Part shown: positions 759 through 63,180 of the stretch, one piece after another
Position numbering within the stretch: position 1 is the stretch's first letter
How the letters are laid out: each line of letters begins with the position of its first letter
Assembly: GCA_038065275.1 (NCBI GenBank)
Contig: JBBTRH010000002.1
Location: forward strand, 34,756-98,755
Source of the DNA: Patescibacteria group bacterium
GTDB taxonomy: Bacteria; Patescibacteriota; Patescibacteriia; SBBC01; CAIJZX01
DNA: 64,000 nucleotides
Direction: 5' to 3'
The notes under the pieces: generated by a model
Database searches by the model: none
The model's input: the letters and a program-made list of their open reading frames with translations, nothing else
Told to the model about the DNA's origin: nothing
Program-made: the position numbers and the translations under genes

Positions 759-1304
759 ATGCTATCCCTCAACTTGATCCCCCCCCAGCTGAAAACGGAT
801 ATTCAGACCACTGCCATGCTCCGGCATTGGCGACGAGGCCTGGTTATGCTGGCCGTCCTGACGGTCGTCGGTACGGGCGGGGTGATCACCGCCTGGCAAC
901 TGCTCGCCGGACATGCCCGCCAGGTTCAAGGTGAGCTGACCGCCTTACAACAGCGCCAATCGACCCGCGGCGAAACCGATATCACGGCCACGACCGGCAC
1001 TCTGAATACCACCATCAAAATACTCAGTACGACGCTCGGCCGTCCGCAATCATGGTCACGCAATGCGGCGATGGTGTTAGCCGCCTTACCGTCCGGAACG
1101 ACGGTGTCCGATTTGACGATCCAAGCTGGCGGTCGTTTCCGCCTGGTCGGCGTGGCCGACAGCCGGCAAACGTTCGTCGCCCTGGAACAGACCTTGAAGA
1201 CGCATCCCCAGTTACAGCAGGTCACCACCTCATCGACCGCTTCTAAGCGGACCGCCGTACCGTTCGACTTTACCGGCCTGGTGGTCGCCGGAGGTCCCCC
1301 ATGA
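759..1304 (+). CDS. pilN: Type IV pilus assembly protein PilN-like
   Basis: Single N-terminal TM helix then periplasmic region; 5 nt after pilM stop; size and order as in pilMNO. Confidence 0.5.
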   Translation: MLSLNLIPPQLKTDIQTTAMLRHWRRGLVMLAVLTVVGTGGVITAWQLLAGHARQVQGELTALQQRQSTRGETDITATTGTLNTTIKILSTTLGRPQSWSRNAAMVLAALPSGTTVSDLTIQAGGRFRLVGVADSRQTFVALEQTLKTHPQLQQVTTSSTASKRTAVPFDFTGLVVAGGPP

Positions 1305-2349: not shown

Positions 2350-3024
2350 ATGGCTGATGGAATGGAAGACAGGGTGCATGATTCACTCCTCGCCTTTACT
2401 GACTTCTTGTATGCGGTGGTGTTTGGCATGATCGTCGGAAAAATCTTCGAAGACGTCATCAACGCCACTGGTCACTGGGGTGATAAGTTGGGGAAAATCG
2501 CCCTAGTCGGCGGAGTTTTCTACTTCTTGGCCTGGGATTGGTTACACGGTCGGTTGTTGACCCTGAAGAACCCATACCGGGGATATTGGCGATTTTTTCT
2601 TGAAATAATCATCGCGTGTTGCGGTTATGGGGCAGCACTTGGGGCCGTAGCAGCAAGCCCCTCTCTCCTGCTCTACATTGCCGTAATTCTATTGCTCGGT
2701 GTGTGGTGGTCCACGCTGACCATACGCGAATATCCTCAAAGCATCGATCTGCGGGAACTACGGTTTGTCATAAGATACCAATTAGTTGGCTTCACTTTTC
2801 TGCTCGTCTTCTCCGCGACCTACTTAGCCCAAGTCGGGACTCGGATACATCCGTGGGTATCGATACCATACGTACTCTGGGGATTCCTTTTTGTTTTCAT
2901 CTATGAGCTTTTCATCGAGCGCCCACCGGGGATGCTTGGCGGACCCGGAGTTCCATTCGTGAATAGAGAAATCATGACAGCGGCCAGAAGAAAAATCTTC
3001 CGTCCTAAGAAAGGAGAAGAATAA
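2350..3024 (+). CDS. hypothetical polytopic membrane protein
   Basis: 224 aa with about 6 hydrophobic helices; own promoter and RBS. Confidence 0.5.
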   Translation: MADGMEDRVHDSLLAFTDFLYAVVFGMIVGKIFEDVINATGHWGDKLGKIALVGGVFYFLAWDWLHGRLLTLKNPYRGYWRFFLEIIIACCGYGAALGAVAASPSLLLYIAVILLLGVWWSTLTIREYPQSIDLRELRFVIRYQLVGFTFLLVFSATYLAQVGTRIHPWVSIPYVLWGFLFVFIYELFIERPPGMLGGPGVPFVNREIMTAARRKIFRPKKGEE

Positions 3025-3026
3025 GA

Positions 3027-3128
3027 TGGTTGTCAAGATCATTATTCTTTTCGCCCTGGCTTACATCAGCACGATTCTGGCTGGCTTTCTGGCCGATCAC
3101 TACTCACGGCGAAAACCCAAGCGCTAGT
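3027..3128 (+). CDS. small single-TM peptide (33 aa), unannotated in ORF track
   Basis: ATG 2 nt after upstream stop, AGGAG 8 nt upstream; MVVKIIILFALAYISTILAGFLADHYSRRKPKR; lies between upstream gene and a canonical terminator. Confidence 0.3.
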
Positions 3129-3150
3129 CGCTACACGCACCTTCTCACCC

Positions 3151-3183
3151 AGGGGTTGGCCGTACAACCCCTGTTTTTATTTG
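3151..3183 (+). terminator. rho-independent terminator
   Basis: AGGGGTTG-gccgta-CAACCCCT hairpin followed by GTTTTTATTT. Confidence 0.7.
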
Positions 3184-3383
3184 AGTGCGGAGATATATCA
3201 GAACAAAACGGTTGTTTGGTCTCGACGATTTTCGGTTCGCGGCTGGAAAAAATATGCACCGTTCCGAAAACACCGCCATATCCCGGAACGATGTCCAATT
3301 CCCCCTGCTGAACCCGTAACATCCCAATCTTTCTTCCGCCGCCCATGATTTGTTTCGTCGAGTCTCTCAGCAGATGACGCCTG

Positions 3384-3495
3384 GTCAACCCCGTTAGAAG
3401 CGACTAAGCCGCAGTTTGTTGATGAAATGTTGTTATGTGGCCACAAACAAAGTATATTATTTTAGTGTAGGCTTTCCGCTTCTAACGGGGTTGAC
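3384..3495. repeat. Inverted-repeat element family A (19-bp arms GTCAACCCCGTTAGAAGCG, ~75-bp loop)
   Basis: Left arm 3384-3402 and right arm 3477-3495 are exact reverse complements; same core CCCCGTTAGA(A/G)GCG also at 15550-15657 and 63028-63103. Confidence 0.6.
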
Positions 3496-3519
3496 AAGGT
3501 TGCTCCCGCCAGGTACAAT
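3491..3519 (+). promoter_or_regulatory. sigma70 promoter of rpmA (TTGACA-17-TACAAT), -35 formed by the repeat arm
   Basis: Consensus -35, 17-nt spacer, TACAAT; 40 nt upstream of rpmA ATG. Confidence 0.6.
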
Positions 3520-3559
3520 GATGTTCGGTTCGCGGGAGGCTTAATCATTTTCCCAGTTT

Positions 3560-15180: not shown

Positions 15181-15335
15181 CCCCACCCCCAACGCCCCCT
15201 CCCGACCTCCTCTTCCCCGTGCGCGGGGTTGCCCTCCTTAGGCCGAAGGATGGCACTTCGGGAGGGGGATCTTGAGCAAAGCGAAAGAGGGTGCCGGGGG
15301 TGGGGGTATGCACCCCGGTCACAGCCACCGTTCAT
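15181..15335. repeat. GC-rich G-run/C-run palindromic region (CCCCACCCCCAACGCCCCCTCCCG ... CGGGAGGGGG ... CCGGGGGTGGGGG)
   Basis: Imperfect long inverted repeat; related motifs at 42700-42790, 50324-50398, 60481-60575. Confidence 0.4.
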
Positions 15336-15525: not shown

Positions 15526-15554
15526 ATACTATCAAATCAACGTCGTTTTGTCCA
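15526..15554 (-). promoter_or_regulatory. sigma70-type promoter (TGGACA-17-TAGTAT) for the HicB-like ORF; -35 provided by repeat arm
   Basis: Hexamers and spacer read directly on the minus strand. Confidence 0.4.
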
Positions 15555-15657
15555 CCCCGTTAGAGGCGAACGCTGACACCAGAAGAACGGTTGATTTTCC
15601 CGGCGTCCTGAATTGTACTATATGACCGAGGCAAACCACCCTCGCCTCTAACGGGGT
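15550..15657. repeat. Inverted-repeat element family A (arms GTCCACCCCGTTAGAGGCGA / TCGCCTCTAACGGGGT, ~72-bp loop)
   Basis: Same core as 3384-3495; right arm abuts stop codon of 15657-16649. Confidence 0.55.
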
Positions 15658-16649
15658 TAATATTTCGCCAAGGCCGCGTCCGACGGCGCAGTATTCGGGG
15701 CCGGGATTTTCGGTTCTTGTTGCTTTACCGCGGGCGGAATGAGTTCGGCCGGCGCGACCGCGATCAAGCCGTCACTGGTGAAAATGGCGTCCCCTTTTGA
15801 CACTCTGACCATCGTCGTGCCGTTCAGTCCGTCAGCCACTTGATCAGCTCGGACGTTAGTTAAGGCATACGTAGCGCCGTTGACTTCGATATTTTGCCGG
15901 CCGGGATAATGATTGGCGGAAAACGCCAGTCTGGTGCCGTCAGTGCTCAGGGAGATCGGAGTAAAGGGGGTCTTGGCGTAAGCCGGCCCCTCGGCCAGGA
16001 ATACCCGCCCGTTAAAGGCTAATAAGCGTTGCCGGCTGGTTACATTGGAAATCAACACGTCTTCGCTGGCGACGATGTCGATCAAGTAGACACCGGGACG
16101 GTCGGCCGGCAGTGACAACGCGACGCGCTGGGGTCTCCCGCGCCGCCCCTTGGCGACCGTCACGCCGTCGTCCCCGACCGTGACGGTTTTTAGCCAGGTT
16201 GGTCGTTCGGCGGCGATGGTGTCGACCCTGGCTATACGGGCAGTTAAAGTCTCGGGGCCGAGATACCGATTGAGATCGACTTTGTCGAAGCTGAACTGAA
16301 TGGTTTCGAGAGCGGCATAAATATAAATCTGGTGACTCCCGCGAAACGTATTGTTGATGGTGATCGGCGCGGCGCTCGGCCGGTATCCTTTGACGACCAC
16401 TGACGCTAATCGATTGACCACCTTGTTCCGGCGGGGAGATGTTTTTGCGACGCGAATATTAACCTTTTTCGTGACGGCGTAAACTTGGGTGATATTGACT
16501 GGATTCCAGCGGAAGATATTATCAAAATCGATAAAAGAAAAATGGCTGTTTACAAGCAATGCGAAAAAGAAGATTGGGACGGTAACTATGATGCCCTTGA
16601 GCGCCTGTAAGCGCGTACAAAAATGTAGTTTTGGGAGTGACTGGTTCAT
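15657..16649 (-). CDS. membrane-anchored surface protein, paralog B
   Basis: 330 aa; N-terminal signal anchor; conserved blocks shared with paralog A. Confidence 0.5.
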   Translation of the reverse strand: MNQSLPKLHFCTRLQALKGIIVTVPIFFFALLVNSHFSFIDFDNIFRWNPVNITQVYAVTKKVNIRVAKTSPRRNKVVNRLASVVVKGYRPSAAPITINNTFRGSHQIYIYAALETIQFSFDKVDLNRYLGPETLTARIARVDTIAAERPTWLKTVTVGDDGVTVAKGRRGRPQRVALSLPADRPGVYLIDIVASEDVLISNVTSRQRLLAFNGRVFLAEGPAYAKTPFTPISLSTDGTRLAFSANHYPGRQNIEVNGATYALTNVRADQVADGLNGTTMVRVSKGDAIFTSDGLIAVAPAELIPPAVKQQEPKIPAPNTAPSDAALAKY

Positions 16650-42699: not shown

Positions 42700-42790
42700 T
42701 AGTTATTGCTGCTTCCCCCACCCCGGCTCCGCTCCGCTTCGCCACCCCTCCCTAATTAGGGAGGGGTCTCGCAGGGGGTGGGGGTTAGCG
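42700..42790. repeat. GC-rich palindromic repeat (CCCCCACCCC ... CCCCTCCCTAATTAGGGAGGGG ... GGGGGTGGGGG)
   Basis: Nested inverted repeats between two minus-strand genes; same family as 50324-50398. Confidence 0.4.
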
Positions 42791-48508: not shown

Positions 48509-48968
48509 TTGATGCTACCAAAAAACTGCCGTCCTGACAACCGTCATGGCGTCAATTGATCGGGGGACCAGTCGAGCCGCGAGCGTTGAGCTCCCGTAGC
48601 AGTGAACACCTGGTGAGGATGTTGTCGTCACTGCTAGTGAGTTCCGGCCTTCGAGGTTTCTGGCCCGGGCCCTGATCCTCCGGTCAATGAACGCGCGGTC
48701 GGGTATACACGAAACGGCCTGGCCCGCAAATGCGGCAGGCAAGTGTCGAAAGTGAACTATGTCTTCACCGTACGTCCAGGTTACACGACTGTCAAGTCTC
48801 CAGTTGTGCACAGGCGATGTTTTTTTACGACGTCAACTCGTTGATCGAAAATCGGTTGCTGTGCCTATGCTATCATAGTTATCATATTTGCGTCGCACAA
48901 TACTTTTGTTATCCACATTCCTAATTTTTTCTTTAGATGGCAATAATTACAATGTCGAGCCCGCCGTA

Positions 48969-49074
48969 GACCAGCCCCACTTTGGTCGGTTTAATTTTTT
49001 TGGCAAAGTAAATGTCCAGTCGCAGTAACGTCATAAAGAAGATTAACTGCTTTATTGCCAAAGTGGCGCTGGTC
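48969..49074. repeat. Inverted-repeat element family B (arms GACCAGCCCCACTTTGG / CCAAAGTGGCGCTGGTC, 72-bp loop)
   Basis: 16/17 complementary; same arm core as the 21-bp perfect IR at 61133-61245. Confidence 0.55.
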
Positions 49075-49110
49075 GCAAGTGGAATATGTCGGTTCAAAAT
49101 AATTTCCGGA

Positions 49111-49139
49111 TACCAAAACCAGCCCGATTAAGAGCTGGT
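49111..49139 (-). terminator. rho-independent terminator of the zinc-ribbon gene
   Basis: Minus strand: ACCAGC-tcttaatcgg-GCTGGT followed by TTTTGGTAT. Confidence 0.55.
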
Positions 49140-49153
49140 CGTGGTTTAAATCC

Positions 49154-49354
49154 TTAGTAGCGGCGCGGGGCGTCGCCGAACGCTTTGCGTTGCGGCTTGT
49201 GCTCGCGGCAGTACACCGGACGCTGGGGGGTCCCGTCGGGATTCATGGCCGGTTGGAACGGGAGCTCGGTGATGGCCGTGCCGCAGGTGGCACAGGTCAA
49301 ATTCAGCGAGGTCACGTCGATCATCGGCCGGGGACCGCCTTGGTTGTAATCCAT
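49154..49354 (-). CDS. small zinc-ribbon protein (CxxC ... C-x3-H)
   Basis: 66 aa; LTCATCG ... YCREH resembles CxxC-x17-CxxC zinc-ribbon family. Confidence 0.4.
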   Translation of the reverse strand: MDYNQGGPRPMIDVTSLNLTCATCGTAITELPFQPAMNPDGTPQRPVYCREHKPQRKAFGDAPRRY

Positions 49355-49652
49355 GGTGGGCTTGTCGTGATTGTTAGTGAGCGTGGGTCGACTTCGAAAG
49401 CCCGTTCAGCGTCTGCGCCGGCGATGCCGGCGATCTGCGTGCGTAGCTTCTTTTCCCATCTTGGGCAAGGGTAGCAGAGGATGAGATATTTGTCAACCCC
49501 AATCCCCCCAGACTGCCGATACTAAATACAGCCTATGCTTTTTAGCAACGCTGATCCCGCATCACTCCCCTTCGACTCACTCCGTTCGCTCAGGGTCGGA
49601 TGCGGGATGGCCCTACAACGACTCAAATGAGTCAATATTGTAACCGTTTCTA

Positions 49653-50323: not shown

Positions 50324-50398
50324 CCCCCCTTCGTCCCCTCCTTATCTAAGGAGGGGTGCCGAGCGGATGAGCGAGGCGGGGTGGTCAGAGATACCGGG
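50324..50398. repeat. GC-rich palindromic repeat (CCCCTCCTTATCTAAGGAGGGG) between convergent genes
   Basis: 22-bp near-perfect palindrome; may act as bidirectional terminator hairpin. Confidence 0.4.
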
Positions 50399-60685: not shown

Positions 60686-61063
60686 CTAGACCAGGGGTGA
60701 TTCGACGCTCAGGCTGTCGACTTCGTCACTGAAAACTTCCTCCCAACTGTCCATGGCCTTCTCCACCAAGCGGTACCCGCGGCGGTTGTGGCGACGGAGC
60801 GTATCGTGCTCCAGCTCGAAGAAGATGGTCGCCGCTTCGTCGCGCATCCACTTCACCATGTCGTCCGTCACCGGCAGGTTACGATAGCGGGAACCGTGGA
60901 GGCGCTTGAGGCGCATCAGCAGGGCCGCGACCGCGGTCCACAGCACCTCTTGCTCCGGCGTCAAATCTGGGCGTTTCCTTAAGCGGCTACCTGCTGACTC
61001 CTGGTTGACGCGACCGACCCCGAACTGCCGGACGAGACTGATAAAGAACTGTCGCACCAGCAT
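60686..61063 (-). CDS. hypothetical protein
   Basis: 125 aa; strong RBS (AGGGAGG) 8 nt upstream and TTGACA-16-TACGAT promoter. Confidence 0.4.
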   Translation of the reverse strand: MLVRQFFISLVRQFGVGRVNQESAGSRLRKRPDLTPEQEVLWTAVAALLMRLKRLHGSRYRNLPVTDDMVKWMRDEAATIFFELEHDTLRRHNRRGYRLVEKAMDSWEEVFSDEVDSLSVESPLV

Positions 61064-61109
61064 GGTCTACCTCCCTGTCTCCAGGCCATGGGGTTTGAGG
61101 AACAGCCGT

Positions 61110-61137
61110 ATCGTACTCCACCGCGAAAAAATGTCAA
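61110..61137 (-). promoter_or_regulatory. sigma70 promoter (TTGACA-16-TACGAT); -35 supplied by terminal GTCAAC of IR element
   Basis: Read on minus strand upstream of 61063 start. Confidence 0.5.
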
Positions 61138-61245
61138 CCCAGCACCACTTTGGCTTATCCGTAGGTTTTTTTACCCGAGTTCATCTGCCATGAAAATCAA
61201 TTGGGCGGAAAACATGCATTTTATCCAAAGTGGTGCTGGGTCAAC
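61133..61245. repeat. Inverted-repeat element family B: perfect 21-bp arms GTCAACCCAGCACCACTTTGG / CCAAAGTGGTGCTGGGTCAAC with 71-bp loop
   Basis: Exact reverse complements; located between tRNA-Gln and the next gene. Confidence 0.6.
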
Positions 61246-61327
61246 ATCTTATTGTCGAGCAAGGCCGGCCGCGCTTGACGAGAACAAAAAAGTTGCCTGG
61301 TCGGTATTTTCAAGTCGAAACATTTTT

Positions 61328-61401
61328 TGGCTCCGGGACCTGGACTCGAACCAAGATTACCAGGTTCAGAGCCTGGCGTCCTACCATTAGACGATCCCGG
61401 A
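61328..61401 (-). tRNA. tRNA-Gln (anticodon CUG)
   Basis: 7-bp acceptor stem TCCGGGA/TCCCGGA, anticodon loop CTCTGAA, T-arm TTCGAGTC, encoded 3' CCA. Confidence 0.75.
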
Positions 61402-63025: not shown

Positions 63026-63027
63026 AT

Positions 63028-63103
63028 CTCGTTAGAAACTTCTTTTAATCAGCGTGGCGGGCATGGGGAAAAGATGTTGTGTCCCACCCAAGTTTCTAAC
63101 GGG
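63028..63103. repeat. Inverted repeat (CTCGTTAGAAACTT / AAGTTTCTAACGGG) of family A core, 3 nt upstream of dnaX start codon
   Basis: 14-bp arms with about 48-bp loop; shares CGTTAGA(A/G) core with elements at 3384 and 15550. Confidence 0.45.
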
Positions 63104-63180
63104 ACATAGACTAGTAGTGTACCCGAAGCAAGCGACCGGCCGCAAGATGGCCGGCGCTGTGGAGAACTCGGCTCGCCCCA

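Follow-up and report, generated by a model that had tools for sequence, protein, structure and literature searches.

A probable hairpin-ended miniature insertion element at the −35 box of a patescibacterial promoter, and its possible relation to small GIY-YIG nuclease cassettes

Introduction

Correia elements of Neisseria (also called CREE or NEMIS) have 26-bp repeats and duplicate TA. As described (PMC2649163), they resemble the subject of this paper (A1, a repeat in the 64,000-nt stretch of DNA that was analysed, hereafter the window) in being non-coding and intergenic, with a length of ~100–150 bp, in having terminal inverted repeats and a short target duplication, and in having ends that take part in the promoters of neighbouring genes; a Correia hairpin can form in RNA. 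The two are, however, unrelated in sequence: here the repeats are of 15–19 bp, the duplication is of 4 bp, the elements live in a CPR bacterium, the −35 box is that of a host promoter and is regenerated by the duplication rather than supplied by the element, and the Correia IHF site has as its only counterpart a weak central TTGATTTTC motif. A1 was not accepted as a Correia element because of its different repeat sequence and length, its 4-bp duplication and its host (by sequence, a member of Kerfeldbacteria).

REPINs are like the elements described here in having two conserved inverted sequences of ~16 nt and a spacer that is kept in length but not in sequence, in undergoing compensatory changes that keep the pairing, and in leaving single arms as remnants (PMC3116915). 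They fold into one long hairpin that includes the spacer, which is unstructured here, and the REP unit is a palindrome with a GTAG head, whereas the arms here are not self-complementary. These features of arms and spacer, together with the lack of a Y1/RAYT gene among the 40 window ORFs scanned, led us to reject A1 as a REPIN or REP-RAYT system. We know of no REPINs described with 4-bp target duplications.

Integron attC sites are also imperfect inverted repeats (about 60–140 bp) whose structure is kept more than their sequence. In the elements considered here, however, RYYYAAC and GTTRRRY do not occur in the required order (as judged by eye), there are no cassette arrays, no integrase was seen and the arm sequences are conserved within families. 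A1 was rejected as an attC site because TGTCAAC and GTTGACC fail the consensus (again by eye), the order is reversed in family B (see below) and the copies are isolated. Finally, free-standing GIY-YIG homing endonucleases (T4 Seg, I-TevI) invite comparison with the small nuclease cassettes discussed later, in being (putatively, for the cassettes) selfish, in having a GIY-YIG catalytic domain (PF01541) and in inserting between or into host genes. The homing enzymes carry a DNA-binding domain, are without terminal inverted repeats and home to one cognate site, whereas the cassettes encode only a catalytic domain of ~90 aa, have 14–16-bp inverted repeats that overlap the ends of the ORF, and have apparent ORF-less derivatives at many sites.

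CPR/Patescibacteria genomes are about 1 Mb in size, tightly packed, and usually described as poor in mobile DNA. In the literature, we found nothing relevant on MITEs in CPR bacteria or on inverted-repeat-flanked stand-alone GIY-YIG elements. Here we argue that A1 (61134–61244) is probably a non-autonomous, hairpin-ended insertion element of the MITE kind. The main interest beyond its coordinates lies in a possible new class of tiny, inverted-repeat-bounded GIY-YIG cassettes.

Judged by sequence, the host is a Candidatus Kerfeldbacteria (CPR) bacterium of 55% GC. The window is ~99% identical to the NCBI MAG GCA_964359265.1 and to contigs from Hainich groundwater, and the best source-named matches of its BipA and L27 proteins are to Candidatus Kerfeldbacteria or to 'Patescibacteria group'. 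Loci on other contigs are referred to by L numbers.

Anatomy and surroundings of A1

An earlier, sequence-only reading had described a perfect 21-bp inverted repeat at 61133–61245, with arms that were exact complements, around a 71-bp loop. The repeat and its coordinates were confirmed, but it is not perfect: 19 of the 21 positions pair, and the perfect part is of 17 bp (61137–61153 and 61225–61241), with the loop of 71 nt between these 17-bp arms. The reverse complement of GTCAACCCAGCACCACTTTGG is CCAAAGTGGTGCTGGGTTGAC, yet the right arm reads ...GGGTCAAC, where the left arm predicts ...GGGTTGAC. The 21-mers fail to be exact complements because GTCAAC is not a palindrome, and the outer bases (GTCAAC...GTCAAC, or TCAA...TCAA) are a direct repeat, not an inverted one. 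When the ends are set at CCC...GGG, A1 becomes a 103-bp element with 16-bp arms and a 71-nt spacer, between identical 4-bp flanks (junctions tgTCAA/CCCAGCAC..GTGCTGGG/TCAAca), as follows.

61110..61137, minus strand: promoter of ORF 60686–61063, TTGACA-16-TACGAT, whose TTGA is the gene-side flank copy of A1
61134..61137: left flank copy, a 4-bp direct repeat, TCAA on the plus strand and TTGA on the gene strand
61138..61153, plus strand: left terminal inverted repeat CCCAGCACCACTTTGG, perfect over 17 bp with A61137
61154..61224: spacer of 71 nt, 38–39% GC (window, 55%), unstructured by itself
61225..61240, plus strand: right terminal inverted repeat CCAAAGTGGTGCTGGG
61241..61244: right flank copy, a 4-bp direct repeat, TCAA on the plus strand

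A1 has no coding capacity, the sole listed ORF across it being a mechanical one of 100 aa (61088–61390, plus strand) that also runs through the tRNA-Gln gene. The GTCAAC ends, although not part of a perfect palindrome as had been supposed, hold the flank duplication, and the gene-side copy does complete a −35 box: the proposed promoter of the adjacent gene (minus strand, 61137..61110) is present and matches the consensus at 10 of 12 positions. A second candidate, TTGACC-15-TAAAAT at the left end of A1 (read by eye), was discarded as a promoter for its too short spacer, and the A1 loop contained no promoter-like site.

The adjacent gene for tRNA-Gln(ctg) is indeed there, at 61328–61401 on the minus strand, but adjacency to a tRNA is a weak sign of a mobile element, with 4 of 14 A copies lying within 600 nt of a tRNA gene. 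The positions of the elements follow promoters and TNNA sites more clearly than tRNA genes, and the link of A1 to a tRNA is probably incidental.

The repeat is beyond chance. A scan of the window for inverted repeats (at least 13 matches, at most one mismatch, loop 30–130 nt) gave six, against about 1.1 in each of 15 first-order Markov-randomised copies, and five of the six had loops of 67–74 nt. The motif CCACTTTGG occurs five times in the window (0.47 expected).

Copies of A1 and two further families

The window contains a second A-type copy, and three copies of a sister family (B) that has the same build and a different arm sequence. A third family (C) was found in relatives.

48969..49074: A2, an older or degenerate A-type copy, arms GACCAGCCCCACTTTGG and CCAAAGTGGCGCTGGTC with one mismatch, 72-nt loop
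3380..3499: B1, arms GTCAACCCCGTTAGAAGCG (3384–3402 and 3477–3495), 19 bp perfect, 23 bp with one mismatch, 74-nt loop
15554..15657: B2, arms ACCCCGTTAGAGGCGA (15554–15569 and 15642–15657), 72-nt loop
63023..63108: B3 with its duplication, CATA/TCTCGTTAGAAACTT - 48 nt - AAGTTTCTAACGGGA/CATA, inserted at the dnaX start codon (arms 63027–63041 and 63090–63104, loop 48)

Arm lengths in these four range from 15 to 23 bp. A2 had already been noticed as a related copy; its arms (48969–48985 and 49058–49074) pair at 16 of 17 positions, it has neither a flank duplication nor an adjoining promoter, and it was recovered by nhmmer with E = 1.4e-19. That the loops of A1 and A2 share only a T-run is roughly right, as an oriented alignment found weak common motifs only. 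B2 lies between the stop codon of ORF 15657–16649 and the promoter (TGGACA-17-TAGTAT, spacing by eye) of a 57-aa ORF.

Further copies, the prediction by which a mobile element could be checked, were found: besides A2, there is a degenerate one in L176, and other CPR contigs, at least ten of them, have a further ten or more at sites that are unrelated. Family A is present in several Kerfeldbacteria-like CPR genomes. Pattern scans for the extended arm given above for A1 found A-type copies in L017, L104 (two copies), L102, L126, L128, L130, L131, L132, L133 and L138; variant copies occur in L121 and L135, and L073 and L087 have a subfamily with a GC-rich loop. The pattern used on genome contigs specified 18 bases, and most of its 114 matches were due to chance, the related ones being only those in L017, L104, L102, L073, L087 and L088. 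Paired arms were absent from viral contigs, which gave only single chance matches.

The A-bearing loci of other CPR contigs show no synteny with the window. A1 and an element in L104 (L104b) are 76% identical overall and 94% over the last 33 nt, while the surrounding DNA does not align. The degenerate A-like copy in L176 lies between tRNA-Gln and bipA, in the opposite orientation and with different neighbour genes. Loop orientation relative to the adjoining gene varies between A copies, that of A1 being opposite to those of L104b and L133. The profile search found only two A copies in the 64 kb of the window and one degenerate copy in 181 kb of relatives, a low number for an active MITE, which counts against that interpretation. 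The spacers of different copies are almost unalignable and the arms perfect; this combination needs either selection on the arms or an ascertainment bias, as copies were found through intact arms.

Some matches were set aside. A helix of verrucomicrobial 23S rRNA, CCC(A)GCACCACTTTGG...CCAAAGTGGTGC(T)GGG, resembles the A arms and was met in L047, L097, L118, L119, L123, L125, L136 and L137; we regard this as the coincidence of one helix and not as a set of elements. The inverted repeat at L001:1816–1917 is a chance GC-rich repeat in coding sequence. The one at L130:880–992 is a tRNA-Leu(gag) gene (892–977, minus strand) whose acceptor stem runs on into a perfect 21-bp duplex of leader and trailer, an unusual precursor structure. 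Among the A-type copies themselves, a single element with three arms in L121 (583–765) suggests a nested or partly duplicated one.

Evidence for insertion

A test for 2-bp target duplications such as TA had been suggested, but the duplication at A1 is of 4 bp (TCAA/TCAA on the plus strand). With ends taken at CCC...GGG, 9 of 26 elements have identical 4-bp flanks (binomial P~6e-16), and in five more three of the four bases are the same. On the gene strand, the nine read as follows.

TTGA: A1, L017, L126, L130, L177C, L182C
TTTA: L131
TATG: B3
TAGA: short copy in L190

As six of the nine are TTGA beside a promoter, the two TTGA copies might be needed for function and not result from duplication of a target. 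The TTTA, TATG and TAGA flanks argue against this, although they are few; they also show that the target is not strictly TTGA.

For B3 there is a clean empty site. Upstream of dnaX, the window has GGGTACACTACTAGTCTATG, the 78-bp B3 and then TATGGCCGAGG, where the relative L176 has GGGTACACTACTAGCCTATGGCTGAAG; deletion of the 78 bp and one CATA gives a continuous alignment to L176 across the junction, and L177 is likewise without B3. B3 lies exactly on the start codon of dnaX. Of the two TATG copies, the upstream one now begins a mini-ORF (ATG TCC CGT TAG), and the real start codon comes 78 nt further on, directly after the right arm of B3, with no obvious ribosome-binding site.

The rpmA (L27) locus also changes between species. 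Gene order there is kept in L179–L182. In three of these (L179, L180 and L181), no element adjoins the rpmA promoter (TTGACA-17-TAnnnT); in the window it is abutted by the right arm of B1 (the promoter reading TTGACA-17-TACAAT), and in L182 by a C-type element (arms ACCGGTACTACAACAA) with TTGA/TTGA flanks. Thus, different families occupy this promoter in different species, and in others it is empty. Compared with L179–L182, the window (2350–3559) also has an extra 224-aa membrane ORF (2350–3024) and a 535-bp spacer between the pilus genes and rpmA, and B1 lies at the end of that spacer.

At A1, the features of a MITE that can be seen are the terminal inverted repeats, the 4-bp target-site duplication, the small size and the lack of coding capacity, and families B and C share this construction and have 4-bp flanks of a like kind. 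On the other side, the flanks of B1 (TCAA on the left, TTGA on the right) are inverted rather than direct, and A1 is unchanged and in the same orientation in all four assemblies available for the host species (~99% identical), which give no empty site for A1 itself.

The small mobile element that the sequence-only reading had proposed is partly supported, by the flanks, the copies and the B3 empty site, and not by the proximity of a tRNA gene or of an AT-richer, gene-free stretch on which that proposal had been based. The latter stretch is likely to be the remains of a lost EndoIII gene rather than an island brought by an element: at the syntenic position, L176 has an EndoIII (HhH-GPD) gene, of which a 39-nt remnant match is left at 48892–48930, and from the sequence, window 48509–49154 is probably a decayed gene with A2 inside it. 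Next to it (49137–49496), a 66-aa CxxC ORF (49155–49355, minus strand) and its flanks are 84% identical to L176 over 370 nt of DNA, much above the surrounding genome.

Elements at −35 boxes

On the gene strand, the A1 locus reads TTGA-element-TTGACA, the element lying within the −35 hexamer of the promoter of ORF 60686–61063, and the promoter sequence is intact because the right-hand flank copy completes the hexamer. Most copies are similarly placed: the arm ends in ...GGG immediately before TTGAC(A), and a proper −10 box follows 16–18 nt later. From copy to copy, the spacers of these promoters are unrelated and the −10 boxes vary, and at rpmA the promoter is also found with no element beside it; the adjoining promoters are therefore host sequence and not part of the element.

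A duplication of TTGA inside TTGACA would rebuild the hexamer on the gene side, so that the promoter would survive. TTGA may be a true preferred target, or it may be that, given very short intergenic regions, only harmless insertions persist, and our data fit both. In either case, elements of ~100 bp that land in a −35 hexamer and rebuild it would illustrate a way for selfish DNA to last in a streamlined genome while leaving its genes unbroken, and promoter-proximal sequence in these organisms would be partly transposon-derived.

The same juxtaposition might instead mean that the arms are paired operator or activator sites, at which a regulator loops the AT-rich spacer to control the adjoining promoter, one site being immediately upstream of the −35 box and the other, inverted, ~88 bp beyond it. 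In keeping with this, the arm abuts TTGAC(A) in A1, B1, B2, L017, L104a, L126, L130, L133, L138, L176, L177B, L177C and L182C, arm sequence is conserved across genera, spacer length is constrained, and in L177 a solo C-type arm lies directly on the bipA promoter. We nevertheless think it improbable: insertion is evident from the identical 4-bp flanks and the empty site, B3 lies over a start codon, and neither A2 nor the L131 copy has an adjoining promoter. The downstream genes (hypothetical protein, L27, L19, CsoR, and an ORF that looks HicB-like by eye and has no Pfam match) have no common theme, three different arm sequences share one architecture, and the varying arm positions always change on both arms, which a protein-binding site would not require.

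Pairing of the arms

In family B, 96.5% of arm cells are paired, and 10 of 16 pairs have changed on both sides, a value not reached in any of 500 shuffles; slid controls gave 33–50% pairing. The outer core CCCCGTTAGA is conserved, and the inner part varies between copies and is always matched on the other arm. Several family B copies were found via their inverted repeats, but the L183, L185 and L190 cassettes (see below), found by protein similarity, are free of that bias. Family A arms have compensatory changes at three pairs and, at one position, a mismatch that recurs. The ends of the element evidently have to match each other for whatever acts on them.

Such pairing could also be expected of a structured RNA, the stem of which might act as a terminator or insulator, protect 3' ends or be cut by RNase III, in transcripts from upstream genes such as that for tRNA-Gln. 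The stem is certainly strong, having an MFE of −48 to −52 kcal/mol (z about −7) when folded in either orientation, as had been suggested as a check, and compensatory changes maintain it. All five window copies are downstream of a co-directional gene, and on the gene strand a T run follows A1. However, the stem is equally good on both strands and most copies are without a U-tract. No window element (A1, A2, B1, B2, B3) matched an Rfam family: at gathering and at permissive thresholds only the tRNA passed, and the best local match was noise (E = 9.7), so the assignment to a known RNA that would have spoken against a mobile element was not found. The 71-nt loop is unstructured and without covariation (loop-only folding gave z = −0.29 for A1 and, averaged over 23 elements, a z of about 0; from 12 oriented A copies, RNAalifold predicted the stem alone, with no conserved pairs in the loop), and loop structure was rejected for these elements. 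In L017, L128 and L138, the copies lie between divergent genes (by naive ORF calling), and no transcript from upstream would stop there. With respect to the adjoining gene, the loop is oriented one way in some copies and the other way in others, and the flank duplications are left unexplained. A role as RNA in the first place is therefore unlikely, although an inserted element may have a secondary effect at the RNA level.

Least credible is an invertible switch, in which a site-specific recombinase would flip the 71-bp segment and so change expression of the neighbouring gene, for although inverted repeats do surround a short AT-rich segment beside a promoter, and related loops (A1 as against L104b and L133) stand in opposite orientations to it, opposite orientations are equally expected of a symmetric transposon, one orientation is found in all four assemblies of the host species, the loop has no promoter-like site, the 40 window ORFs scanned include no recombinase gene, 71 bp is short for recombinase synapsis, and flank duplications and the empty site are unexplained.

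If A1 and its relatives are insertion elements, as we consider probable, they would be cut at their CCC/GGG ends and would enter at staggered breaks of 4 nt, for the most part in TNNA sites and above all in TTGA. Since compensatory changes keep the arms of each copy complementary, the enzyme that mobilises the elements probably recognises a hairpin or cruciform, or else a pair of identical sites to which a dimer binds. The predicted empty site of A1 is ...GATGTTGACATTTTTT... with a single TTGA.

Small GIY-YIG cassettes as a candidate source of the mobilising enzyme

No transposase, integrase, recombinase or Y1 enzyme was found by Pfam among the 40 window ORFs scanned, which lie outside an 18.9–30.3 kb gene cluster and which had housekeeping genes only. 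A kb-scale search between A arms in the loci examined revealed no ORF-bearing element with such arms. In L087 (5558–7023), two A-type copies in direct orientation flank a DUF362/4Fe-4S gene, their inner ends forming a 26-bp inverted repeat; as the gene is not for a transposase, this pair was dismissed as a coding partner.

When repeats with a wider spacing were sought, L104, whose MAG also carries three A copies, proved to have B-type arms separated by 271 nt. The segment between them encodes a 92-aa protein consisting of the GIY-YIG catalytic domain alone (PF01541, E = 6e-14). Counting this one, cassettes of ~300 bp with ~270 nt between B-type arms occur in five places; each has 14–16-bp inverted repeats with the core CCCCGTTA...TAACGGGG around an ORF for a GIY-YIG-only protein of 86–93 aa.

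L104:7521–7823: GIY-YIG cassette
L128:4550–4842, minus strand: GIY-YIG cassette
L183:9965–10267: GIY-YIG cassette, on the 979-kb Kerfeldbacteria contig that comprises L183 and L184, with GTTAGA changed to GTTCGA and a matching change on the other arm
L185:169–469: GIY-YIG cassette
L190:1631–1935: GIY-YIG cassette of the L186–L195 locus

In L186–L195, from a low-GC organism, the cassette interrupts a transposase gene of the IS91 family, leaving Y2_Tnp and Zn_Tnp_IS91 as separate ORFs, and L190 has, as well as the cassette, an ORF-less copy of 75 bp between TAGA flanks on both sides. In the cassettes, the C-terminus of the nuclease and its stop codon are contained in the right arm (AAC CTC TAA, or CTA ACG GGG TGA). 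Among the closest nuclease homologues, 87 of 120 end in the peptides that a right arm would encode (..LTG*, ..NL*), and some mis-called N-termini (MTPLEV, MSPVR) are the left arm read through. In the library clustered at 50% identity, the nuclease family has 5,105 representatives at E <= 1e-3, a number that falls to 661 at E <= 1e-10, and (L/P)T(G/A) ends the domain in 22 of the 40 representatives that carry the tail motif. There is also a weak match of the nuclease to TIGR01453, and tblastn gave no match to it in plasmids and phages.

A MITE is usually assigned to an autonomous partner by the terminal repeats that it has in common with a coding element. Between family B and the cassettes, 11–16 nt of arm are shared, the short ORF-less copies having 11–13 nt in common with them (13 nt identical in B2), and the idea that the spacers of short elements derive from the nuclease ORF was dropped, the arms alone matching the cassettes. 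A small GIY-YIG gene is present on 3 of 13 A-bearing contigs, whereas Kerfeldbacteria loci that lack A copies, about 150 kb in all, contained none. None of the cassettes (L104, L128, L183/L184, L185, L186–L195) has clean 4-bp flanks. For A1 itself, the proposed link to the nuclease comes from the architecture shared with family B, the CCC/GGG ends, the same type of flank and this co-occurrence.

The best candidate for the mobilising enzyme would thus seem to be the stand-alone nuclease of 86–93 aa encoded between B-type arms in the same kinds of genome, with family A assumed to be mobilised in trans. We offer as a tentative suggestion, possible without being likely, that the ~300-bp cassettes are uncatalogued autonomous mobile elements, smaller than any known insertion sequence, and that the A, B and C hairpins of Kerfeldbacteria, A1 included, are their ORF-less derivatives. 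On this suggestion, it is the structure formed by the paired arms that the nuclease would recognise, and this would account for their covariation; the sites at which it inserted copies would be TNNA, as found in stop codons and in the TTGA of −35 boxes. Enzymes of the GIY-YIG kind are nucleases and, to our knowledge, are not known to carry out strand transfer or to join DNA, and we know of none among the bacterial transposases. If the link is true, a nuclease class would be added to these transposases, and a very small autonomous element would provide a simple system for the study of structure-guided DNA mobility.

A second, GC-rich repeat family

Nested, GC-rich palindromes of the form CCCCACCCCC..CCCCTCC..GGAGGGG..GGGGGTGGGG make up a second repeat family, present in the window at 15181–15305, 42715–42784 and 50330–50385, and in L133 at 1131–1214, where the copy is 81% identical to window 15186–15268.
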